This document shows positions 12,979 through 24,049 of a DNA stretch of 64,000 nt, piece by piece (within the stretch, counting starts at the first letter, position 1; each line of letters begins with the position of its first letter). The notes beneath the pieces are model-generated. The model did not search any database. It was not told the DNA's origin and saw nothing but the letters and a program-made list of their open reading frames with translations. The stretch comes from Bacilli bacterium. Lineage in GTDB: Bacteria > Bacillota_I > Bacilli_A > RF39 > UBA660. The stretch spans positions 720 through 64,719 of the forward strand of contig JAFSEX010000038.1 in assembly GCA_017435465.1 (NCBI GenBank). Direction: 5' to 3'. A program made the translations under genes and the position numbers.

Positions 12979-14394
12979 ATGAAAAATAAAAAAGTTAAAA
13001 TAATAAAAATAATAATATCTATAATAATATTAATATTATCTTTAATATGTTTTAAATATATTAAGGATATGAATATATTACCAAATAAATATTTATATCT
13101 ATTTCTGTTAATACTATTAATAATAAATCTTATCGCAATATTCTTATCATTTAAAAAAGGCAAAATAACCAAAATAATAAGTGGAATACTATATATATTA
13201 ATTGGTGTAATATCAATACTTGGTATTAAATATTCTAGTGCTACTATTAAATATTTAAATAAAGGATTTAATAATAATGTAGAAACAACTACATACAATG
13301 TTATTGTTTTAAAAAATAGTAATTATAAAGAGTTAAAAGATTTAAATAATACAAAAATGGGATATTTATTTAATGATGTAGATAATGATAAATATTTAGA
13401 TAAAATAAAAGAAGAAATAGATGTTGAATTAAAAGAAGAAGATTTTTTAACAATATATACTGATTTAATAAATAATGAAATATCAGCTATAATAATTAAT
13501 GAAGCATATTTAGATATTATTGAAGAACAATATAAAGACTTTAGTGATAACACTAAAATATTATATAGTTTAAATATTAAAAATAAAGTTAAAACTAATA
13601 ATGATATTTTAAAAGAATTAAAACCAGTTAATATATATATATCTGGTAGTGATTCAAGAAGTAATACTATTACTGATAGTACATTATCAGATGTTAATAT
13701 AATTGTTACACTTAATCCTAAAACACATACAATGTTATTAACTAATATTCCAAGAGATTATTATGTACAATTACATGGAACTACAGGTACTAAAGATAAA
13801 CTTACTCATGCGGGATTATATGGTATTGAAATGAGTAAGAATACATTAGAAGATTTATTTGGAATAGAAATTGATTATTCAATTAAATTAGGATTTCAAA
13901 GTGTAGTTGAAATAGTTGACTTAGTTGGTGGGATAGAAATATATAGTGATACAGCATTCAATTCATTTCATAAAAAAGGTTGGTATGTAAAAAAAGGTAT
14001 AAATTATATGGATGGTGAAAAAGCACTTGCTTATGCTAGAGAAAGATATGCATACTCAGATGGTGATTCACATAGAGGACGTAATCAACAACAAGTAATT
14101 GAAGCAATATTTAATAAAATAGTTGCGGATAAAACCATATTGTTAAAATATGATAGTTTACTTAGTAAATTTAGTAAACTATATAGAACAGATATTCCTA
14201 AAGAATTTGTAACTTTATTAATAAAACAACAATTAGAAGATATGTCTTCATGGACTATTGAAAAACAAAGTGTAGAAGGTAAAGGTACGTTAGGACAAAC
14301 TTATTCTATGCCAGGACCTAATTTATATATTACAATACCTAATCAAGATACAATAAATAGTGCAGTTCAAAAAATAAATGAAGTTAGTAAATAA
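12979..14394 (+). CDS. LCP (LytR-CpsA-Psr) family polysaccharide-peptidoglycan ligase, CpsA/Wzg type
   Basis: Three N-terminal TM helices; GSDSR, SDVN, IPRDYYV, KLTHAG, ARERY, RGRNQQ. Confidence 0.92.
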   Translation: MKNKKVKIIKIIISIIILILSLICFKYIKDMNILPNKYLYLFLLILLIINLIAIFLSFKKGKITKIISGILYILIGVISILGIKYSSATIKYLNKGFNNNVETTTYNVIVLKNSNYKELKDLNNTKMGYLFNDVDNDKYLDKIKEEIDVELKEEDFLTIYTDLINNEISAIIINEAYLDIIEEQYKDFSDNTKILYSLNIKNKVKTNNDILKELKPVNIYISGSDSRSNTITDSTLSDVNIIVTLNPKTHTMLLTNIPRDYYVQLHGTTGTKDKLTHAGLYGIEMSKNTLEDLFGIEIDYSIKLGFQSVVEIVDLVGGIEIYSDTAFNSFHKKGWYVKKGINYMDGEKALAYARERYAYSDGDSHRGRNQQQVIEAIFNKIVADKTILLKYDSLLSKFSKLYRTDIPKEFVTLLIKQQLEDMSSWTIEKQSVEGKGTLGQTYSMPGPNLYITIPNQDTINSAVQKINEVSK

Positions 14395-14467
14395 AATTTA
14401 AAAAATTAGTCGAAAAAAGAGAATAATCACATATTTGCTGGGTATAATATAGTAGAAGGTGGTAAAT

Positions 14468-14554
14468 ATGTGGTTATTTATTTTAATATTAATATTATAT
14501 TTTATAATGTGGTGTTCAGTTAGAGTAAGTTCAAACTGTAATGATGATGAATAA
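14468..14554 (+). CDS. Unannotated 28-aa single-TM peptide MWLFILILILYFIMWCSVRVSSNCNDDE
   Basis: TATAAT at 14443-14448, RBS aaggtggt, hairpin terminator directly after the stop. Confidence 0.6.
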   Translation: MWLFILILILYFIMWCSVRVSSNCNDDE

Positions 14555-14557
14555 ATT

Positions 14558-14590
14558 AAGATATTATTGGAATTTTAATATCTTTTTCTT
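14558..14590 (+). terminator. Intrinsic terminator after the small ORF
   Basis: aagatatta...taatatctt inverted repeat followed by a T-run. Confidence 0.55.
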
Positions 14591-14690
14591 TTACATATAA
14601 TTTACATAAAAACCAAAACTTGGCATATTTTATTGATAAAAAAACTATATATTATGATATAATTGTTATGTGAATATAAAGAGGTGCGAG

Positions 14691-15356
14691 ATGGAAGAAA
14701 TTGATTTAAAAGAATTATTTGAATTTTTTATGAGTAAAATTGGTTTACTTATTGTTATAACAGTTTGCGTTTGTTTATTAGGATCAATATATGGATTATT
14801 TTTGCAAACACCAATGTACAGTTCATATACTACAGTTGTATTAAGTTCTGAAACAACAATTACTCAAACAGATGTAACACTTAATAAAAACTTAGTTAAT
14901 ACATATGCTGAAATTGTTAAATCTAGAAGAGTATTAGATCAAGTTATAGACGAATTATTACTTGATAGTAGTTATGAACAAATGGTAGGTAAAATATCAG
15001 TTAGTACTGTAAACAACACAGAAATAATTAAAATTACTGTAAATGATAAAAATCCTAATAAAGCTAAAAACATTGCCAATTCAACTGCAAATTACTTTAC
15101 AAAAGAAATTGTAGAATTATATGATATGAACAATGTCAATGTCTTAGATGAAGCAATTATCTCAGAAAAACCATATAATATAAATATTATTAAACAACTT
15201 GTACTTTATTTTGCTATTGGATTTATATTGGGTATTGGAATTCTATTTATAATATATTATTTTGATAGAACTATCAAATCTATTGAACAAGTTGAACAAA
15301 AAATTAAACTTCCAATTCTTGGTGGAGTTCAAGATAATAGTAGGGGAGGTAAATAA
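14691..15356 (+). CDS. cpsC: Capsule chain-length determinant Wzz/CpsC (Wzd)
   Basis: EEIDLKELF, two TM helices, DRTIKSIEQVE..LPILG. Confidence 0.9.
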   Translation: MEEIDLKELFEFFMSKIGLLIVITVCVCLLGSIYGLFLQTPMYSSYTTVVLSSETTITQTDVTLNKNLVNTYAEIVKSRRVLDQVIDELLLDSSYEQMVGKISVSTVNNTEIIKITVNDKNPNKAKNIANSTANYFTKEIVELYDMNNVNVLDEAIISEKPYNINIIKQLVLYFAIGFILGIGILFIIYYFDRTIKSIEQVEQKIKLPILGGVQDNSRGGK

Positions 15357-15358
15357 AT

Positions 15359-16027
15359 ATGAAAAACGAATTAGTTGTATTTAATAAACCGAAAGCTAAT
15401 ATAAGTGAAGATATTAGAACAATTAGAACAAATTTACAATTTACCTCATCAGTACAAGATGCTAAAGTTTTATTAGTTACAAGTTCTGTACCAGGAGAAG
15501 GAAAAAGTTTTATTAGTAGTAATCTAGCATGCGCTTTTGCACAAACTGAAGAAACAACACTTTTAATTGATAGTGATCTACGTTTAGGTAGATTGCATAA
15601 AATATTTAATGTTTCAAATGAAAGAGGATTATCAAATTTACTTGCTTCAAAAGATGTAAAAAAATGTCTTCCATATATTAATAGTACGCAAGTTGAAAAT
15701 TTATTTGTAATTCCCCGTGGAACAGTTCCACCAAATCCAAGTGAACTTTTAAATTCTCAAAATACAAAAGATTTAATTGAATATTTAAAAACTAAATTTG
15801 ATCATATAATATTTGATGGAGTACCAATAAACGGTCTTCCAGATTCACTTGTTATGGCAAATTTTGTGGACCAAGTAATTATTGTATCTGCAGTTGGATA
15901 TACAAAAATAGATGAATTAGATGAAACAAAAAAAGCATTACAAAAAATTGATGCGAATATTGCTGGTGTTATTGTAAATAGAACAAATAAAGTTAAACGT
16001 GGAAAATATGCTAGTTACTATGAATAG
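15359..16027 (+). CDS. cpsD: BY-kinase CpsD/CapB (tyrosine-protein kinase)
   Basis: IRTNLQF, Walker A GEGKS, DSDLR, PPNPSELL, C-terminal Tyr cluster YASYYE. Confidence 0.93.
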   Translation: MKNELVVFNKPKANISEDIRTIRTNLQFTSSVQDAKVLLVTSSVPGEGKSFISSNLACAFAQTEETTLLIDSDLRLGRLHKIFNVSNERGLSNLLASKDVKKCLPYINSTQVENLFVIPRGTVPPNPSELLNSQNTKDLIEYLKTKFDHIIFDGVPINGLPDSLVMANFVDQVIIVSAVGYTKIDELDETKKALQKIDANIAGVIVNRTNKVKRGKYASYYE

Positions 16028-16036
16028 GGTGATCAA

Positions 16037-16750
16037 ATGACAGATATTCATTCACATATATTATTTGATGTAGATGATGGAAGTAGTAATATAGAAGAAA
16101 GTATTGAATTATTAAAAAAATTAAAGAGTATTGGATTTAAAAATGTTATATTAACTCCTCATTATATTGAGGGTAGTGATTATTGTAGTTTAAATCAAGA
16201 AAAACTTGAGAAAATTGAAATACTAAAAAGTGAAATAAAGAAAAATAATATTGATATTAATATATATTTGGGTAATGAAATATTCATTAATGATAATATT
16301 ATTAAATCTATTAAAGATGGTAAAATATACCCATTAAATAATACTAAATATCTTTTAATAGAATTACCATTTTATAATCAAATCCTAAATTTAGATGATA
16401 TATTATTTGAAATAACACATGCTGGATATATTCCAGTAATTGCTCATCCAGAAAGATATTCTTACTTTCAAGAAAATTATAAATTAATTGATTCATTAAG
16501 AGAAAATGGAGTGTTATTCCAAGCAAATTATTCTAGTATTCTAGGCCATTATGGAAAACAAGCTAAAAAATTACTTAAATATATGCTTAAACAAAAATAT
16601 ATTGATTATCTAGGAACAGATATTCATCATATAGGTAAAACATTTGTTATTGATAATTTTGAAAAAATAAATAAGAAAATTAAAAAAATTACAAAAGAAG
16701 AATATTATAATCAAATAATTAATAATTGTAATAATTTGATTTCAAAATGA
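16037..16750 (+). CDS. cpsB: PHP-type tyrosine phosphatase CpsB/CapC
   Basis: DIHSHIL..DDG, TPH, AHPERY, GTDIHH. Confidence 0.93.
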   Translation: MTDIHSHILFDVDDGSSNIEESIELLKKLKSIGFKNVILTPHYIEGSDYCSLNQEKLEKIEILKSEIKKNNIDINIYLGNEIFINDNIIKSIKDGKIYPLNNTKYLLIELPFYNQILNLDDILFEITHAGYIPVIAHPERYSYFQENYKLIDSLRENGVLFQANYSSILGHYGKQAKKLLKYMLKQKYIDYLGTDIHHIGKTFVIDNFEKINKKIKKITKEEYYNQIINNCNNLISK

Positions 16751-16782
16751 GAATATATGATTATTCTCTTTTTCTTTATTCT

Positions 16783-16821
16783 AAAAAACACAAAATTAGT
16801 AAATAAAATTTTGTGTTTTTT
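16783..16821. terminator. Terminator-like inverted repeat downstream of cpsB
   Basis: aaaaaacacaaaatt...aattttgtgtttttt. Confidence 0.55.
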
Positions 16822-16997
16822 ATTTTATATAAATTTTCATATTTTAAAATCATTTACATTAATAAAAACTGAATTTTTGATAATTAATTTATTTATATTT
16901 AATTTACTCCATATCACAAATATTAAATATTTGTGATTTTTATAGTTAAATTAATTATGTTAATATGCTAATAAAGGATGATTTGAGGTGCATATAT

Positions 16998-17882
16998 ATG
17001 AATTATTACAATGAAATAAAAACAGAATTAATAAATAATGAAATAACAAAGAAAATAAAAGATTATAGTAAAAATAAAAGCGATTTAACTACTTATTATA
17101 ATGTCGGTAAATTACTTAGTGAGGCTGGTAAACATTATGGTGAAGGAATAATTAAAAATTATTCACAAAAACTAAAAAATGAAATTAATAAAAAATATAA
17201 TGAAACAAATTTAAAAAGAATGAGACAATTTTATTTAAAAGTTGAAAAAGGTGCCACTTTGTGGCACCAATTGTCATGGAGTCATTATAAATTACTTTTA
17301 CCATTAAAATCAATTGAAGAGATTAATTATTATGTTAAAACAGCTGTTAATAATTTATATTCTGTTAGACAACTAGAAGAAAAAATTAAAAGTAAAGAAT
17401 ATGAAAGATTAGCAGAAGAGACTAAAAATAAATTAATCACTAATGAGAAATCTAATGTAAAAGATTTAATTAAAAATCCTATAATTATAAATAATAAAAA
17501 CAATTATAAGATTATCTCTGAAAAAGTATTACAAAAAATAATTTTAGAAGATATTGATAATTTTTTAGATGAATTAGGAAATGGTTTTTGTTATATTAAA
17601 AATGAATACAAAATTAAATTAGGAGATAGATATTACTATATAGATTTGTTATTATATAATATAGAATTTAATTGTTATACAATAGTAGAACTTAAAATAA
17701 CAGAATTAAAAAAAGAATATATAGGACAAATACAAACATATATGAATTATATTGATAAAAATATTAAACGAATTGATCAAGATAAAACTATAGGAATAAT
17801 TGTTTGTAAAAAGAACAACAAATTTATAATGGAATATTGTAGTGATGATAGAATACTTACCAAAGAATATAATTTAGTTTAA
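16998..17882 (+). CDS. DUF1016 / YhcG family PD-(D/E)XK nuclease (copy 1, intact)
   Basis: YYNVGKLL, NLKRMRQFY, LSWSHY, ELGNGF, IDLLLYN..VELK, GQIQTYMNY, TIGIIVCK. Confidence 0.92.
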   Translation: MNYYNEIKTELINNEITKKIKDYSKNKSDLTTYYNVGKLLSEAGKHYGEGIIKNYSQKLKNEINKKYNETNLKRMRQFYLKVEKGATLWHQLSWSHYKLLLPLKSIEEINYYVKTAVNNLYSVRQLEEKIKSKEYERLAEETKNKLITNEKSNVKDLIKNPIIINNKNNYKIISEKVLQKIILEDIDNFLDELGNGFCYIKNEYKIKLGDRYYYIDLLLYNIEFNCYTIVELKITELKKEYIGQIQTYMNYIDKNIKRIDQDKTIGIIVCKKNNKFIMEYCSDDRILTKEYNLV

Positions 17883-17964
17883 TTTATAATGATAAATTAT
17901 ATATTTCATTTATTATTTTAAAAAACTTTATTTTATTGTATAATGTAACTATGGAGGAATAAGT

Positions 17965-18435
17965 ATGAAGAGAATTCTTTTTATATCAAGTACTGGTGGG
18001 CATTTATCTGAAATGTTACAACTTAAACCAATGTTTAAAAAATATGATTATCATATTATAACAGAAAAAACAAAATCAACAATTGGATTAAAAGACAAAT
18101 ATAAAAATAAAGTAAATTATTTAGTTTATGGGACAAAACATTACATGTTTCCATATATATTCATATTTATATATAATATTTTTAAATCATTATTTTTATA
18201 TATTAAAATTAGACCGAAAGTAATTATAACAACAGGAACTCATACAGCTGTTCCGATGTGTTACATTGGAAAATTATTTGGTAGTAAAATTATATTTATT
18301 GAAACATTCGCAAATAGTGAAACTAAAACTTTATCTGGTAAATTAGTATATCCAATCGCAAACCTTTTTATTGTTCAATGGAAAAGTATGCTCAAATTAT
18401 ATCCTAAAGCAATATATGGGGGGTGGATATATTAA
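17965..18435 (+). CDS. PssD/Cps14F (Alg14-like) glycosyltransferase subunit
   Basis: SSTGGHL, ITTGT, FIETFA, FIVQW. Confidence 0.9.
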   Translation: MKRILFISSTGGHLSEMLQLKPMFKKYDYHIITEKTKSTIGLKDKYKNKVNYLVYGTKHYMFPYIFIFIYNIFKSLFLYIKIRPKVIITTGTHTAVPMCYIGKLFGSKIIFIETFANSETKTLSGKLVYPIANLFIVQWKSMLKLYPKAIYGGWIY

Positions 18436-18914
18436 TGATATTAGTTACATTAGGTACGCAAGATAAAACATTTAATAGATTGCTGAAAAAAATTCAAGAA
18501 CAAATAGAATTAGGTAATATTAAAGATGAAGTAATAGTACAAGCTGGATGTACAAAGTTTGAATCTAATAATATGGAAATATTTGATTTGATTTCGATAG
18601 ATGAATTAGATATATTAACAAAAAAAGCTGATTTAATAATTACACATGGTGGAGTAGGTTCAATTATTAGTGGACTTAAAAATAATAAAAAAGTTATAGT
18701 TTGTCCAAGACTTCAAAAATATGATGAACACGAAAGTGATCATCAATTACAAATAACAAAAAATTTTTATAAAGAAGGATATATTATTCCATTTTATGAA
18801 AATGACGATTTAGAAAAATTACTTAAAAAAGCAAAAAAATTTGAACCAAAAAAATACAAAAGCAATACCAAAAATATGATCAAATTAATAGAAAATTATA
18901 TTGATAATATTTAA
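18435..18914 (+). CDS. PssE/Cps14G (Alg13-like) glycosyltransferase subunit
   Basis: VTLGT, ITHGGVGSI, PRL..EH.DHQ. Confidence 0.9.
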   Translation: MILVTLGTQDKTFNRLLKKIQEQIELGNIKDEVIVQAGCTKFESNNMEIFDLISIDELDILTKKADLIITHGGVGSIISGLKNNKKVIVCPRLQKYDEHESDHQLQITKNFYKEGYIIPFYENDDLEKLLKKAKKFEPKKYKSNTKNMIKLIENYIDNI

Positions 18915-18973
18915 AATAATTTATTAATATGTTAATATATAATTGTAATAATAATTACAGGGAGGAATTTTAA

Positions 18974-19711
18974 ATGAAATGTATTTTATTATGTGCAGGA
19001 TATGCAACTAGATTATTTCCACTTACTGAAAATTTTCCTAAAGCACTTTTAACAATTGGTGAAAAACCATTACTAGATTATATTTTAGAAGAAGTAAACA
19101 CAATTAATGAAGTAGATGAAATATTTGTTATAACTAATGATAGATATTATAAACATTTTGATAAATGGGCAATTGAAAAAAATAATATTAAACCAATCAA
19201 AGTAATGAATGATCACACTACTTCAAATGATGATAGATTAGGTGCGATAGGCGATATTATGTATGTTATTAATAATAATAATATAAATGATGATTTACTT
19301 ATTATTGCAGGAGATAATTTATTTACATATAAACTAAATGATGTAATTAATTTCTACAAAGAAAAAAATAAAACAGTTTTATGTGCAAAAGAATTAGACG
19401 ATATAAATTTACTTAAAAGATTTGCAGTTGCTAAAGTTGATGAAAATGATAAAGTGATTGATTTAGTAGAAAAACCAGAAAATCCAGAAAGTAATATAGG
19501 TGTTTATGCAACATATGTATATCCTAATGAAGTACTTAAATATTTTAATCAATATAAAGACGAAGGAAACAATATGGATGCACCTGGAAACTTTCCACAA
19601 TATTTATATAAAAAAGAAGATGTTTATGTATATAAATTTGATGGTGTTTGTTATGATGTTGGAACTCATGAAACACTAAAAGAAGTTAATGAAATTTACT
19701 CAAAAAAATAA
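18974..19711 (+). CDS. Sugar-phosphate nucleotidyltransferase (NTP_transferase)
   Basis: LCAGYATRLFPLT..PKALL, IAGDN, EKP, YDVGT. Confidence 0.88.
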   Translation: MKCILLCAGYATRLFPLTENFPKALLTIGEKPLLDYILEEVNTINEVDEIFVITNDRYYKHFDKWAIEKNNIKPIKVMNDHTTSNDDRLGAIGDIMYVINNNNINDDLLIIAGDNLFTYKLNDVINFYKEKNKTVLCAKELDDINLLKRFAVAKVDENDKVIDLVEKPENPESNIGVYATYVYPNEVLKYFNQYKDEGNNMDAPGNFPQYLYKKEDVYVYKFDGVCYDVGTHETLKEVNEIYSKK

Positions 19712-19833
19712 TATTAAATACGTTTGATAAAAATATCAAGCGTATTTTTAAATATTTAAACATTTCTAAAAAAGTATTTATATTATATATTTTACGTGGT
19801 ATAATATGGTTAATTGACATTGAGGTGGTTTTA

Positions 19834-20925
19834 ATGACAATAACAATAGAAGAAGCAATTAAGATAGTATTAATAACATTTTTATGTTCAGCTATTTTAG
19901 TTCCAATAATAAAAAAAATGGCTTTATTTATAGGCGCAGTTGATGTACCAAATCAAAGAAAAGTACACAAAGGTTTAATACCAAGATTAGGTGGGCTTGG
20001 AATATTCTTTGCATTTTTACTAGGATATATGATGTTTTCAAGACAAAGTATTGAAATGATATCAATTCTTATTGGCAGTTTTATAGTAATAATTACTGGA
20101 GTAATTGATGATATAAAACCATTACCTCCTAAATACAAGTTTGCAGGACAACTTATTGCAGCATGTGTTGTTGTATTTTATGGTGGTATAATTTTAAATG
20201 AAATATCTGCTTTTGGATTTTATATTCAATTTAATGATATAGTTGCAAAAGTTTTAACAGTAGGCTTTATTTTAGGTTGTATAAATGCCATTAATTTAAT
20301 CGATGGATTAGATGGACTTGCAGGTGGAATTAGTGCAATATACTTTTTAACAATTGGTATAATTGCAATGCTTATGGGACATACTGCTGGGCTTGATGTT
20401 TCTCTAACCTTCATAATGCTAGGTTCAACACTTGGATTTTTGATACATAATTTTTATCCTGCTAAAATATTTATGGGGGATTCTGGAAGTATGTTCTTAG
20501 GTTTTATAATATCTGTAATTGCACTTCTAGGATTTAAAAATGTAACTTTAACATCATTTATTGTTCCTTTATTTGTTTTAGCAATCCCAATTTTAGATAC
20601 ATTATTTGCAATAATAAGAAGAACATTAAAAGGTCAAAAAATATCAGAACCTGATAGAAATCATTTACACCATCAACTATTAAATTTACGTTTTTCACAC
20701 AGGACTACAGTAATATTAATATATATAATGGATATTTTATTTGCAAGTGCATCAATAGTCTACATATTAAAAGGTGCATTTATAGGTAAAATAATTTATG
20801 GTATTTTATTAATAATAATTATTTGGTTTGTGACATGTACAGATATTATTACAACTAAAAGACCACTAAAAGATGGTGTAAATAAAATTAAAGAAAAAGT
20901 TAGGAAAAAGAAGAAAAAAGATTAA
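19834..20925 (+). CDS. tagO: Undecaprenyl-phosphate GlcNAc-1-phosphate transferase (TagO/WecA)
   Basis: PRLGGL, GVIDD, NAINLIDGLDGL, IFMGDSGS, HLHH. Confidence 0.9.
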   Translation: MTITIEEAIKIVLITFLCSAILVPIIKKMALFIGAVDVPNQRKVHKGLIPRLGGLGIFFAFLLGYMMFSRQSIEMISILIGSFIVIITGVIDDIKPLPPKYKFAGQLIAACVVVFYGGIILNEISAFGFYIQFNDIVAKVLTVGFILGCINAINLIDGLDGLAGGISAIYFLTIGIIAMLMGHTAGLDVSLTFIMLGSTLGFLIHNFYPAKIFMGDSGSMFLGFIISVIALLGFKNVTLTSFIVPLFVLAIPILDTLFAIIRRTLKGQKISEPDRNHLHHQLLNLRFSHRTTVILIYIMDILFASASIVYILKGAFIGKIIYGILLIIIIWFVTCTDIITTKRPLKDGVNKIKEKVRKKKKKD

Positions 20926-20998
20926 AATATTATAAAAGTATTTTTAATCTTTTTTTATTATAGTATAATTGAATTGTATAAGAAAGGTGTGAATATAA

Positions 20999-21976
20999 AT
21001 GAAAGTGTGTGTAATAGGAGGAGCAGGTTATATTGGTAGTCATGCTGTATATGAATTAATTAGAGATGGACATGAAGTAGTAGTAATAGATAATTTATCT
21101 ACTGGTCTAAAAGAAATGGTTCATGAGAATGCAAAATTCTATTTAGGAGATATAACTAAAAAAGATGAATTAACTAACATTTTTGATAAAGAATGTGAAA
21201 TTAAACCATTTGATGTAGTAATGCATTTTGCTGCTAAATTAATAGTTCCAGAAAGCTTAGATCAACCACTAGAATATTATCATAATAATGTTGAAGGTGT
21301 AAGAATTATGCTTGAAGTTATGACTGAACATGATATTAAAAATGTAGTATTCTCTTCAACAGCAGCAGTATATGGAGAACCAGAAAAAGCTTTATGTGAA
21401 GAAACTGATAAAACTAATCCTGTAAATCCATATGGTGAAACTAAACTAGCTAGTGAAAAATTAATTAAATGGGTATGTCAAAAATATGATATGAACTATT
21501 GTATTTTTAGATATTTCAATGTTGCCGGTGCAGATGAAAGTTTAGAAATTGGACTTAAAAAAGATAATTTAACTCATTTAATTCCAGTAACAATTCAAAC
21601 TGCACTCGGGTTGCGTGAAAAAATGATTGTATTTGGTGAAGACTATGATACAAGAGATGGAAGCTGTATAAGAGATTATATCCATGTTTCTGATTTAGCT
21701 TATGCTCATGTTTTAGGTGCGAAATATTTAGTTGAAAATCATAAAAGTTTATTAGTTAACTTAGGTTCAAATGAAGGATATACTGTAAAAGAAGTAATCA
21801 ATGAAGTAGAAAAATATATGCCAGTAAATTATGTTATTGGAGATAGAAGACCAGGTGATCCAGCAAAAATAGTTGCTTCAAACGCTAAAGCAAAAGAATT
21901 ACTTGGATGGTCACCAAAGAAAAATTTATCAGATATGATAAGAACTGATATGGAATTTAGAAAAAAGAATTGTTAA
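20999..21976 (+). CDS. galE: UDP-glucose 4-epimerase
   Basis: GGAGYIGSH, FSSTAAVYG, YGETK, RYFNVAGA, IRDYIHV. Confidence 0.93.
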   Translation: MKVCVIGGAGYIGSHAVYELIRDGHEVVVIDNLSTGLKEMVHENAKFYLGDITKKDELTNIFDKECEIKPFDVVMHFAAKLIVPESLDQPLEYYHNNVEGVRIMLEVMTEHDIKNVVFSSTAAVYGEPEKALCEETDKTNPVNPYGETKLASEKLIKWVCQKYDMNYCIFRYFNVAGADESLEIGLKKDNLTHLIPVTIQTALGLREKMIVFGEDYDTRDGSCIRDYIHVSDLAYAHVLGAKYLVENHKSLLVNLGSNEGYTVKEVINEVEKYMPVNYVIGDRRPGDPAKIVASNAKAKELLGWSPKKNLSDMIRTDMEFRKKNC

Positions 21977-22002
21977 AACTTTACAAATTTGTAAAGTTTT
22001 TT
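21975..22002 (+). terminator. Palindromic terminator after galE
   Basis: aaaactttacaaatttgtaaagtttt is a perfect palindrome followed by Ts. Confidence 0.6.
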
Positions 22003-22077
22003 ATGTATTTAAAAGTATTTGTGTAATTAATAATTGTAATATATATTATAAGCATTTAAAAATAGAAAGGAAAAAAT

Positions 22078-22967
22078 ATGAATTATTACAATAAGATAAA
22101 AGAAAAACTAATAAAAAGTGAAATCTATGATAGAGTTAAAGATTATTCAAAAGATAGAAATAAAGTTAATGTGTATTTCGAAATTGGGAAATTATTAAGT
22201 GAAGCAGGTAAAGAATATGGTAAGAATATAATAAAACAATATTCTGAAAAATTAATGATTGAAGTGGGTAAAAAATATAATTTAAACACTTTATATAAAA
22301 TGAGAAAATTCTATGAAGTTTTTAGTAATGAAAAATTGTCCACAGTGTGGACAATTTTGTCATGGTCACATTATAGGGAGTTAATACGACTTAAAAATAT
22401 TAATGAAATAAAATATTACATTAGTATTTGTGAGCAAAACAATCTTTCACAAAGACAATTACATGATAGAATAAAAAACAAAGAATATGAAAGATTAAGC
22501 GATGAAGCAAAGAATAAATTAATGAAATCAGAAAAACTAAAAGTAAACGACTTAGTCCCTACTCCAATAATAATTAAAACTACTTCTCTAAATGATAAAA
22601 AACTGAATATGTATTAAAACAAACAATATTGAATAATTTAGATGAGTTTTTATTACAATTAGGAAATGGTTTTGCTTATATAGGTAATGAATACAAAATA
22701 AAATTAGATGGTAAATATAATTATATAGATTTGTTACTATTCAACATTGAATATAATTGTTATATAGTCATTGAATTAAAAGTAACTGAACTCAAAAAAG
22801 AACATATAGAACAAATTGAGGTATATATGAATTACATTGATGAAAATTTAAAAAAAATTACCCAAGATAAAACTATTGGAATAATAATTTGCAAGCAAGA
22901 TAACAAATATGTAATAAAATATTGTTCTGATGATAGAATTATTTCTAGAGTGTATGAGTTGGTATAA
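22078..22967 (+). pseudogene. DUF1016 / YhcG family nuclease (copy 2), split by a 1-nt frameshift at the A6 run 22597-22602
   Basis: ORFs 22078-22617 and 22629-22967 align to the N- and C-halves of copy 1; the alternate frame reads TEYVLKQTILNNLDEF versus SEKVLQKIILEDIDNF in copy 1. Confidence 0.85.
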
Positions 22968-23070
22968 TAGTTATAGAAAATAATATATCAATTACATAAT
23001 CATTGTTTTTCATTTTACAATTAATTTGTAAAGTTTTTGATTTTTTTTAAAATTTGTTGATAGAAAAATA

Positions 23071-23098
23071 TTGATTCGGGGGGGGAATATTATATAAT
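23071..23098 (+). promoter_or_regulatory. Sigma-70 promoter TTGATT-N16-TATAAT with a G8 tract in the spacer
   Basis: ttgatt 23071-76, G8 23078-85, tataat 23093-98, RBS aaggag before ATG 23125. Confidence 0.7.
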
Positions 23099-23124
23099 AA
23101 AAATATAAGGAGTGGATAACTATT

Positions 23125-23970
23125 ATGGAAAAGAAAAATACAGGATTAATAGTTTTGGTTGTAGTTTTAAGTATTGCAGTATTAGGATTAGGTGGATTTA
23201 TTGTTTATGACAAAGTTTTAAAAAGTGAAAAAGAAGATAATAATAAAATAGAAACTAATAATAATCAAATGAATCAAAGCAATAATATAAATAAATTAGA
23301 TGACACCAAAGAAATAGTGTACACTGAAATTTCTTATAATATAACAGGTCATAACGATGAAATGAATGGTTTATCAGAAATTCCACAAATAAATTTAGAC
23401 ACCAAAAATACAATTGATATAAATATTAATATAATTGATTTCTTTAAAAAAATTATGAAGACTAATAAATTTAAAAACAGTTACAAATATGGTCATGAGG
23501 AAACAGATGATCATCTTATATATAAAATTAATTATGAATATTATATTGAAAATAATATTTTATCATTATTGATAACATATATACATTTATCAGAAGCAAA
23601 AGAAGAATATTCATATATTATATATAACATAAATACAGAAACTGGTGAAATTTTATCTAATAATGATTTGATTTATATTAAAAATTATTCGGCGGAACAA
23701 ATAAGAAATACTTTAATTAAAAATATTGACAATTATTATAAATCAATATTTGATAAAGCAAATATTGAATACAAATATGGAAATACAGTATATGGTATAG
23801 ACTTATATAAATCATCTGAAGAAATTAAAAATTTATTATCAAAATATATAGATTCAAATAATATTTATTTACCACTTTACATAAATTCAAAAGGAATTTT
23901 AAATACATATATGAGTATTCCAGTAGATGGTGGAAGTGGATATGATACAATAACAATTCCATTACAATAA
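23125..23970 (+). CDS. Membrane-anchored extracellular protein (possibly DUF3298/PdaC/RsiV-like)
   Basis: N-terminal TM helix, Asn-rich linker, 'YNINTETGEILSNNDL' motif. Confidence 0.55.
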   Translation: MEKKNTGLIVLVVVLSIAVLGLGGFIVYDKVLKSEKEDNNKIETNNNQMNQSNNINKLDDTKEIVYTEISYNITGHNDEMNGLSEIPQINLDTKNTIDININIIDFFKKIMKTNKFKNSYKYGHEETDDHLIYKINYEYYIENNILSLLITYIHLSEAKEEYSYIIYNINTETGEILSNNDLIYIKNYSAEQIRNTLIKNIDNYYKSIFDKANIEYKYGNTVYGIDLYKSSEEIKNLLSKYIDSNNIYLPLYINSKGILNTYMSIPVDGGSGYDTITIPLQ

Positions 23971-24049
23971 TTTTATAAATCAAGATTGTATAAAAATACA
24001 ATCTTTTTTTGTATATAATATCCAAAATTACCAAAAATATTAAAAGAGT

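Follow-up and report, generated by a model that had tools for sequence, protein, structure and literature searches.

Genes of the DUF1016/YhcG family carry, within their coding sequence, a DNA palindrome that is locked to one codon position. In the reading we favor, the palindrome is the putative cognate duplex binding site of the gene's own dimeric product, a proposal made from sequence comparison to which we give about even chances. The element came to light in a 64,000-nucleotide stretch of a Bacilli bacterium genome (contig JAFSEX010000038.1; hereafter, the window), where an initial annotation had noticed different palindromes at the same codon position of two DUF1016/YhcG paralogues. We find that the palindrome recurs at this position in homologues from at least eight phyla, that the constraint maintaining it acts on DNA, and that it lies within the codons of a ParB-type helix-turn-helix (HTH) domain, with whose recognition helix its arms covary.

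A palindrome locked to one codon position

The first of the two genes, copy 1, is intact (305 amino acids, plus strand, 16965..17882, supported as an open reading frame and by Pfam and PADLOC). Its palindrome, GGTGCCAC ttt GTGGCACC, lies at 17250-17268 with its center at 17259, in the codons for G-A-T-L-W-H(Q). The palindrome of copy 2 spans 22332-22358 with its center at 22345 and can be written as AAAATTGTCCACA g TGTGGACAATTTT, with 13-nt arms and a 1-nt loop, or with a 3-nt loop as AAAATTGTCCAC-agt-GTGGACAATTTT; neither palindrome is assigned a strand. Both dyad centers fall 12 nt 5′ of the first base of the L codon of an L-S-W-S-H motif (17271 and 22357), which serves as a conserved anchor and occupies 17271..17285 on the plus strand in copy 1, and the two palindromes have CCAC-N3-GTGG in common. 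Re-reading the sequence bore out the coordinates, the common core, and the spacing of exactly 12 nt that the initial annotation had given. Folded as single-stranded DNA, palindrome 1 has a predicted dG of -10.1 kcal/mol (z -3.6) and palindrome 2 one of -12.8 kcal/mol (z -5.9).

The homologue sample combined the best 80 of 593 stretches encoding relatives (599 candidates, from genome contigs) with matches from 199 scored genomes of the phylum, 21 of which had a match; placing the motif W by hmmalign yielded 133 gene contexts, 131 of them unique. At the offset of -12, these 131 contexts have a mean arm of 7.1 nt, with arms of at least 6 nt in 98 and of at least 8 nt in 86, compared with 0.13% and 0.018%, respectively, at 300 other offsets (39,300 positions). 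When the genes were recoded synonymously with their own codon usage, a mean of 3.9 of 9 pairs formed, against 7.85 observed, and at least 8 of 9 pairs arose in 0.43% of recodings, against 104 of the 131 genes. The comparison with synonymous controls that the initial annotation had proposed therefore comes out as an enrichment of dyad symmetry at -12, and chance is excluded as the source of the position-locked palindrome.

Within the host assembly (1.46 Mb, 24.7% GC), DUF1016_N is matched at 13 places, and a dyad stands at -12 in all 12 copies that can be assessed. The strict motif is present in nine of 12 examined tblastn regions, and all nine have perfect arms of 8-13 nt at -12, with a different arm sequence in each copy. 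Among the variant-motif copies, C12 has 8-nt arms at -12, C42b has 5 perfect pairs at -12 (11 if one mismatch is allowed, as read from the printed sequence), and in C55, a fragment with a frameshift, 8-nt arms enclose a 5-nt loop; the fragment C31 stops short of the palindrome site and hence is not assessable. Genome-wide, palindromes with a 1-nt loop and arms of at least 8 nt occur at only 162 of 1,459,325 positions. A genome search for free-standing copies, which the initial annotation had recommended, found none: there is no second full-length copy of the five palindromes whose own site was recovered, and no second palindrome elsewhere in the genome for any of the nine (for C8, C7, C28, and C12, half-sites only were scored). 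Short half-sites of 8-9 nt give scattered single matches that never make up a second palindrome, and exact matches of cognate half-sites in cis near the genes number 2, against 1.5 expected from swapped arms. We rejected a mobile palindromic repeat, of the kind of repetitive extragenic palindromes or Rickettsia palindromic elements, because, for all nine, the search found no second palindrome in the genome.

The palindrome extends well beyond this host. A plasmid tblastn matched 523 records, from which we took 14 from different phyla, adding yhcG of E. coli K-12, and it is present in plasmids of eight phyla. Arms at -12 measure 15 nt in Hymenobacter, 13 nt in Enterobacter and Arthrobacter, 10 nt in Frigoriglobus, and 8 nt in Legionella and Persicobacter; an imperfect dyad at -12 can be read from the printed sequences of Nostoc, Deinococcus, Rhodococcus, Thiospirochaeta, and Ilyobacter; 12-nt arms are shifted by an insertion in both Cetobacterium and Paraburkholderia; and Citrobacter has no arms of at least 7 nt. 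The E. coli gene (NC_000913.3, 3367827-3368954) contains a 33-bp palindrome with 15-nt arms and a 3-nt loop at codon 132, shifted by an insertion and encoding K-I-W-Q-T-L-S-A-K-S-F, and a second palindrome with 7-nt arms at codon 106, 26 codons upstream of the first, both centered on the first base of a codon. From viral contigs we obtained 57 unique contexts (distant query alignment, GC 24-67%), of which 29 have arms of at least 8 nt at -12, compared with 0.076% elsewhere, and 41 have such arms within 75 nt upstream when indels are allowed. Several members of the I-P-W-G-H type are without a palindrome. The coding palindrome in DUF1016 is thus not universal, but it is widespread, and it is either ancient or has been transferred repeatedly.

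DNA-level constraint and covariation with a ParB-type helix

Across the 131 homologues, the 19-nt core has 57% GC compared with 23% in the rest of the gene, and the GC content at third positions of the six palindrome codons is 59% compared with 15% elsewhere in the same genes, so that the GC-rich islands in AT-rich genes described for the window (19-28% GC) hold for the family sample. The dyad is centered on the leading N of an NTG codon (V, L, or M), which follows an NCA codon (T, P, A, or S). Because the center falls on a first codon base, the pairs link codon positions 3 with 2, 2 with 3, and 1 with 1; wobble bases therefore take two thirds of the constraint, and the protein is able to tolerate the site. 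The codons themselves are forced: the central codon is NTG in 112 of 131 genes, though TTA, GTA, and GTT dominate elsewhere, and the NCN codon in front of it ends in A in 108 genes, in T in 2, in G in 9, and in C in 2, where the background has 46% A and 42% T. The preponderance of A over T indicates that complementarity is selected even one base from the center (d=1), where bases cannot pair in a hairpin loop.

In the 122 members that form 6 or more of the 9 pairs, a tally of mismatches shows that the 976 cells at d=1-8 divide into 924 Watson-Crick, 13 G:T, 23 A:C, and 16 other. Dyad symmetry is therefore retained while the arms change, as had been claimed from the two copies in the window. 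G:T is not in excess over A:C among the non-Watson-Crick cells, which, together with the complementarity selected up to the center, indicates a constraint on DNA and not on a sense-strand RNA hairpin. The proposal that selection acts on the nucleic acid and not on the peptide is likewise upheld, by the synonymous-recoding null and by the forced rare codons. The 9-nt arms of 104 members fall into 65 distinct sequences. Between close relatives, the arms differ by 6.1% where the flanks diverge by 6.9% and by 2.3% where the flanks diverge by 15.8%, nearly all arm changes are paired, and the central base is free, differing in 53-57% of the close pairs. We therefore drop the initial description of the site as hypervariable; the arms differ between paralogues, but among close relatives they change no more rapidly than the flanks (2-6% against 7-16%). 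Flanking residues covary in the way that the DNA symmetry demands, a first W (TGG) going with a final K and a first V (GTG) with a final Q.

The protein sequence around the palindrome points to a DNA-binding domain. Just after the palindrome peptide, copy 1 has a weak match to Pfam HTH_ParB (PF17762; 20.3 bits, cut-off 22.6); the C55 fragment reaches 24.9 bits, above the cut-off, and the domain is found at E 0.01 or better in 19 of 76 aligned members. Comparing a profile of the 76 members with solved structures, we obtained B. subtilis Spo0J (6sdk) as the best match (E 0.033), in an alignment that spans the palindrome peptide and L-S-W-S-H. Against 24 ParB proteins of related genomes, hhalign gave 91.4% probability and E 9e-7 over 103 columns, laying K69-Y90 of copy 1 over ParB E-L-A-K-R-V-G-K-S-R-S-H-I-T-N-M-L-G-L-L (helix, turn, and recognition helix) and L-S-W-S-H over ParB I-S-M-G-H. 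The putative HTH codons of copy 1 (K-L-K-N-E-I-N-K-K-Y-N-E-T-N-L-K-R-M-R-Q-F-Y) lie at 17169..17234 on the plus strand, and the palindrome starts five codons past the recognition-helix codons; in copy 2 the corresponding putative codons, placed by homology to copy 1 and ParB, are at 22249..22314 on the plus strand (K58-Y79, K-L-M-I-E-V-G-K-K-Y-N-L-N-T-L-Y-K-M-R-K-F-Y). These profile comparisons make DUF1016_N a predicted distant homologue of the HTH domain of ParB. In copy 1 and the 76 members, Pfam gave no match to ParB_N, the CTP-binding domain, so the relation is to the HTH domain only and DUF1016 is not itself a ParB protein. The C-terminal half is a PD-(D/E)XK nuclease, with NucS_C also matched in 41 of the 76 members, and Kosinski et al. 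2005 relate the DUF1016 nuclease domain to archaeal Holliday-junction resolvases (PMC1189080).

We compared arm similarity with the similarity of 12-residue protein windows, using partial correlations that control for the similarity of the remaining protein. The partial r peaks at 0.44 and 0.38 over match states 66-83, which correspond to the recognition helix; just downstream of the palindrome the windows have 0.21 and 0.08, states 120-131 form a secondary peak with 0.20 and 0.15, and the remaining windows range from -0.14 to 0.06. In the Bacilli sample, each outer-arm type has its own residue pair after a conserved N-L: GTGTC goes with F-R, TGGTC with R-R, TGGCAG with R-N, [AG]TGCAG with W-L, GGTG with K-R, AGTCA with K-Y, and GTGCAC with F-D. 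The recognition helix of copy 1 holds these arm-covarying residues. Among 42 non-overlapping nearest-neighbor pairs, the outer arm and states 76-77 change or stay together in 40 (rows of the two-by-two table 11, 1 and 1, 29; Fisher p 3e-8), compared with p 0.13-0.74 for equally variable control columns, except states 258-259 at p 0.014. For the inner arm, the association is with states 126/130 (p 1.6e-6). Pairings that recur in distant samples are CTCTCA/W-R (four times), AGTCAC/K-Y, and TGGCAG/R-Q (in E. coli). The covarying positions alternate with conserved hydrophobic ones, and from this helix periodicity we infer that they lie on the exposed face of the helix.

Candidate explanations for the palindrome

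In the reading that we favor, the palindrome would be a cis-acting, dyad-symmetric duplex DNA site embedded in the DUF1016 coding sequence, and the gene product, a putative ParB-type HTH joined to a PD-(D/E)XK nuclease, would bind its own site as a symmetric dimer. The arms would be lineage specific, with the exposed recognition-helix residues changing along with the outer arms, so that gene and site would form a matched, inseparable pair. The likeliest role of such a pair may be to keep a nuclease gene that is potentially toxic and spreads selfishly under tight autoregulation, or to let it mark itself. The initial annotation had offered three options for the site, of which the paralogue-specific operator or target is the best supported, through the ParB-type HTH and the co-change of helix and arms; the mRNA element is weakened by the lack of a G:T excess and by the pairing at d=1, and for a hairpin serving recombination or diversification we found no evidence.

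Several observations weigh against the favored reading. Binding of the site by the DUF1016 protein is something we infer from sequence. No second cognate site stands near the genes, where half-sites do not exceed expectation, and classical operators often come in sets, near promoters. The palindrome is kept (at least 8 of 9 pairs) in 19 of 24 broken copies and 83 of 102 intact ones, an equal retention that is neutral at best, and it is absent from some DUF1016 subfamilies. The covariation with the helix could also arise if the recognition helix packs against the palindrome-encoded peptide, because the arms determine that adjacent peptide as well. One pairing does not recur, GTGCAG going with W-L in the Bacilli sample and with K-Y in viral contigs, and on this ground we rejected a universal two-residue recognition code as too simple. 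The precedent of parS sites inside parB is an analogy of logic and not a shared trait, because canonical parB genes, examined in 24 related genomes, have no position-locked palindrome (15 of the 24 are without arms of at least 7 nt). Finally, a protein that reads sequence would need to re-adapt after every paired change, and arms that are variable but always complementary, 65 of them in 104 genes, are most natural for a hairpin or cruciform that acts by structure only.

This last point also speaks for a rival in which the palindrome is a single-stranded DNA hairpin or extruded cruciform whose shape is read by the gene's own nuclease domain, for self-cleavage, recombination, or the sensing of single-stranded or supercoiled states. 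Pairing is indeed kept while the arms vary freely, the core is GC-rich as if stem stability mattered, the predicted DNA hairpins are stable, and strand symmetry without a G:T excess suits a cruciform, in which both strands fold; the nuclease domain, with its NucS_C matches and its relation to Holliday-junction resolvases (PMC1189080), would be a fitting reader. We nevertheless consider this rival unlikely. Recognition of shape does not predict that helix and arms covary, and the complementarity selected at d=1 could not be used in a hairpin loop. Palindromes of an analogous kind are present in ORF6N and RhuM genes, whose scanned members gave no sign of a nuclease domain. Arms of 8-9 bp are also short for cruciform extrusion. 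The compensatory type of variation and the stable, GC-rich stems would also suit an mRNA hairpin in the coding region that controls how a potentially toxic gene is translated or how its RNA is processed or decays; in DUF1016, ORF6N, and RhuM genes alike, the start codon is ~200-300 nt away from the site, and a 2026 preprint describes an mRNA structure with a regulatory role at the parB 5′ end (10.64898/2026.07.07.737113). We give the mRNA hairpin a small probability, since an RNA stem should tolerate G:U and not A:C, whereas 13 G:T and 23 A:C cells were counted. It would, in addition, leave the pairing at d=1 and the helix-arm covariation unexplained, and an Rfam scan of window positions 16000-24000 gave no match at E up to 1.

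Function could also be absent altogether. Templated correction of quasi-palindromes by strand switching is a known mutational hot-spot mechanism, and a palindrome that arose once in a tolerant loop might be perpetuated by it. The perfect Watson-Crick arms of variable length (8-16 nt), the equal persistence in broken copies, and the free central base among close relatives all fit this account, to which we assign a similarly low probability: one codon position has been kept over at least eight phyla and across 24-67% GC, strongly disfavored codons are maintained, 17 of 59 strong palindromes of the genome lie in DUF1016, ORF6N, RhuM, or KilA-N genes, the 24 parB genes of related genomes are without such a feature, and the arms covary with the recognition helix. 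A site for recombination or diversification, either the core site of a linked recombinase or a hairpin that diversifies the loop, appears very improbable. Some plasmid copies follow an integrase gene or adjoin a recombinase gene, and PMC9881135 reports DUF1016 as enriched beside genes with programmed inversion (odds ratio 17.4); this enrichment is explained by the position of DUF1016 in Type I restriction-modification loci. The host-genome copies, moreover, have housekeeping genes and no recombinase for neighbors, hypervariability of the arms is not borne out, and contigs of the four best DNA sequencing runs over window positions 16800-23100 have no listed variant, rearrangement joint, or molecule end at either palindrome, in data that are a noisy mix of paralogues and other organisms and are uninformative. 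Barely credible, in our judgment, is an intrinsic terminator for antisense transcription inside the gene. A terminator scan flagged palindrome 1 on the minus strand only, as a stem followed by TTTTT, and this T-run exists because conserved E-K codons (GAAAAA) supply A at d=10-13 in most Bacilli-type members; palindrome 2 was not flagged, P-I members and other phyla have AATT or other flanks with no T-run, and the ORF6N and RhuM palindromes have symmetric flanks. With neither palindrome flagged on the sense strand, we rejected a sense-strand intrinsic terminator, and likewise the central NTG as an internal start codon, no consistent ribosome-binding sequence preceding it in the printed sequences.

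Genomic setting, precedents, and related families

Copy 1 is a well-supported member of its family, with Pfam matches to YhcG_C (E 1.8e-34) and DUF1016_N (E 2.7e-26); its scores of 92.7 bits (cut-off 32.8) and 119.3 bits (cut-off 32.5) clear the curated cut-offs of PF17761 and PF06250, and the PD-(D/E)XK nuclease domain (YhcG_C, residues 167-294) occupies 17463..17846 on the plus strand. PADLOC profile hidden Markov models for PDC-S02 match copy 1 at E 4e-65 and the C28 copy at E 9e-140; PDC-S02 has the status of a candidate defense system in PADLOC. A phmmer search of copy 1 against Protein Data Bank sequences found nothing, and the Protein Atlas placed its N-terminal part, by structure, with DUF1016 clusters only and, by features, with unnamed clusters scoring below 0.9. 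Copy 2 had been taken as a gene like copy 1; it is in fact split, on the plus strand, into an N-terminal open frame of 179 amino acids (22078..22617; DUF1016_N, E 3.7e-26, 92.3 bits) and a C-terminal one of 112 amino acids with the nuclease domain (22629..22967; YhcG_C, E 2.5e-32, 112.4 bits). The open reading frame coordinates put the break at 22615..22631 on the plus strand, where the first frame stops and the second starts in another phase, and alignment of the two copies places a net -1 indel in copy 2 just 5′ of the break, followed by the stop. Since the frame is broken between 22617 and 22629, copy 2 is a pseudogene or an assembly error and not an intact gene. One metagenome run has a contig in which a T is added at 22600 and one nucleotide is missing at 22616, and the break may be strain specific or an assembly error. 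Genetic code 4 (TGA = Trp) added only junk extensions and left copy 2 split, and table 11 was kept.

Positions 12979-21976 of the window form a capsule/exopolysaccharide-type locus (LytR-CpsA-Psr, open reading frames at 14670 and 15359, CpsB, an Alg14-like protein, a glycosyltransferase 28 C-terminal domain, a nucleotidyl transferase, a glycosyltransferase 4, and an epimerase), and four sugar-metabolism genes, from 17965 to 21976, are bracketed by the two DUF1016 copies. Elsewhere in the host genome, the copies sit singly among housekeeping genes (FtsW, GatB, RuvA, phosphoketolase, and O-antigen ligase), and several are decayed; single, scattered, partly decayed copies are the picture of a selfishly spreading gene. 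Another genome of the same class (~2.1 Mb, G193) has 15 DUF1016_N matches, many with internal stops, so expansion followed by decay is not peculiar to this host. Plasmid copies lie inside Type I restriction-modification operons or adjoin integrase or recombinase genes.

Cis-acting sites that lie inside the gene whose product reads them are known from other systems. In the full-text literature outside subscription journals and supplementary files, we found no account of a coding palindrome in DUF1016/YhcG, ORF6N, KilA-N, or RhuM genes, and in the passages that deal with the family, published work treats DUF1016/YhcG only as a predicted nuclease of mobile and restriction loci (PMC1189080, PMC3424549, PMC4316617, PMC9881135, PMC7967276). 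The closest precedent is parS-359, which PMC4442127 places within the B. subtilis parB (spo0J) gene: here, too, the palindromic site of a ParB-type HTH protein lies inside the protein's own coding sequence, as we propose for DUF1016. The parS consensus is a 16-bp palindrome, given in PMC4368675 as tGTTtCAcGTGAAAAa/g. It is one conserved sequence across bacteria, present in several copies, whereas the DUF1016 palindrome is unique to each gene, has an odd center, is locked to one codon position, and comes in 65 arm types; ParB has a ParB_N domain, whereas DUF1016 has no ParB_N match and a nuclease domain instead. We rejected the DUF1016 palindrome as a parS site, its arms differing from parS and among themselves, and parS inside parB in the host genome, where parS-like sites form separate intergenic arrays. 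These arrays are tandem parS-like 16-mers (TGTTTCACGTGGAACA) with a 54-bp period, intergenic and at or near contig ends (C20:24647, 24701; C57:4, 58, 112, 166), and C57 also has a ParB_N match ~18 kb from its array.

Other precedents share parts of the arrangement. Origins of the pT181 family lie inside repC with a variable specificity repeat, pac sites lie inside terminase small-subunit genes, and there are internal operators such as lacO2. In all of these, site and reader's gene are inseparable, as here, and the variable inverted repeat of pT181 gives each Rep its own origin; unlike the DUF1016 palindrome, these sites are not known to be locked in position family-wide over many phyla or to be perfect palindromes maintained through wobble bases, and no replication or packaging role, as at pT181 origins and pac sites, is indicated for DUF1016. 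Rickettsia palindromic elements are selfish palindromic repeats inserted in frame and tolerated inside open reading frames, as the palindrome is in DUF1016, but they are multi-copy mobile repeats of one family at unrelated sites, whereas the DUF1016 palindromes are single-copy and at a homologous codon. Nematomorpha mitochondrial genes contain, according to PMC6649704, coding palindromes that are perfect inverted repeats with both arms coding, as in DUF1016; these are in eukaryotic mitochondria, measure up to 284 bp, occur in many genes, and have, in that description, no tie to a DNA-binding domain or to one homologous position.

Analogous palindromes occur in other gene families of the host genome. 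A scan for strong palindromes (arms of at least 8 nt, loop up to 5 nt, at least 4 G/C per arm) found 59, of which 10 are in DUF1016, 4 in ORF6N, 2 in RhuM, and 1 in KilA-N genes; the remainder are mostly in short frames or near frame ends. A palindrome at C28:190880, in a glycine/alanine-rich stretch of FtsZ, we took as unrelated. ORF6N genes (PF10543) have arms of at least 6 nt at one aligned codon in 17 of 26 contexts, up to 16 nt and variable in sequence, with a mean arm of 8.2 nt at the locked codon against at most 1.9 nt at any other offset; the host-genome sites are C8:27379-27395, C58:287-313, C22:5032-5064, C28:182257-182279, and C28:183161-183187. Three ORF6N genes (L159, L145, and L162) carry essentially one DNA palindrome read in a different frame. 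In RhuM genes (PF13310), 25 of 32 contexts share one position with arms of at least 6 nt; arms there average 9.0 nt, reach 14 nt, and vary in sequence (host-genome sites, C22:52158-52182 and C62:10703-10729). As single cases, a KilA-N gene has a 32-bp perfect palindrome with 16-nt arms and no loop (C54:3994-4025), and a Bro-N gene has an AT-richer palindrome with 8-nt arms (C22:8932-8948). ORF6N, RhuM, KilA-N, Bro-N, and DUF1016 each count as a DNA-binding family found in phages, mobile elements, and restriction-modification loci. We tentatively suggest, at a probability clearly short of even, a class of "self-addressed" genes (DUF1016/YhcG, ORF6N, RhuM, and probably KilA-N and Bro-N) that would carry their own putative recognition palindrome in the codons of the DNA-binding domain, co-evolving with the helix.

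DUF1016/YhcG is a large family (523 plasmid records, E. coli K-12, a PADLOC candidate) without known function, and the palindrome is the first concrete, testable handle on it: a defined DNA sequence that each protein may recognize, and one at hand in a laboratory strain through K-12 yhcG. Selection on DNA here overrides codon usage and shapes the protein sequence, which is relevant to aligning and modeling these families, and the ORF6N and RhuM palindromes suggest a wider rule for mobile DNA-binding genes. Were the self-addressed class real, it would represent a general, previously unnoticed mode of cis-restricted action or regulation of selfish or toxic genes and would amount to a large natural collection of helices matched to their sites, out of which the recognition code of ParB-type HTH domains could be read. 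If DUF1016 proteins do bind their own sites, this would explain the restraint or self-marking of a potentially toxic, multi-copy nuclease gene (~13 copies in 1.46 Mb), the covariation would yield a recognition code for its ParB-type helix, and the logic of parS inside parB would extend to a nuclease family.

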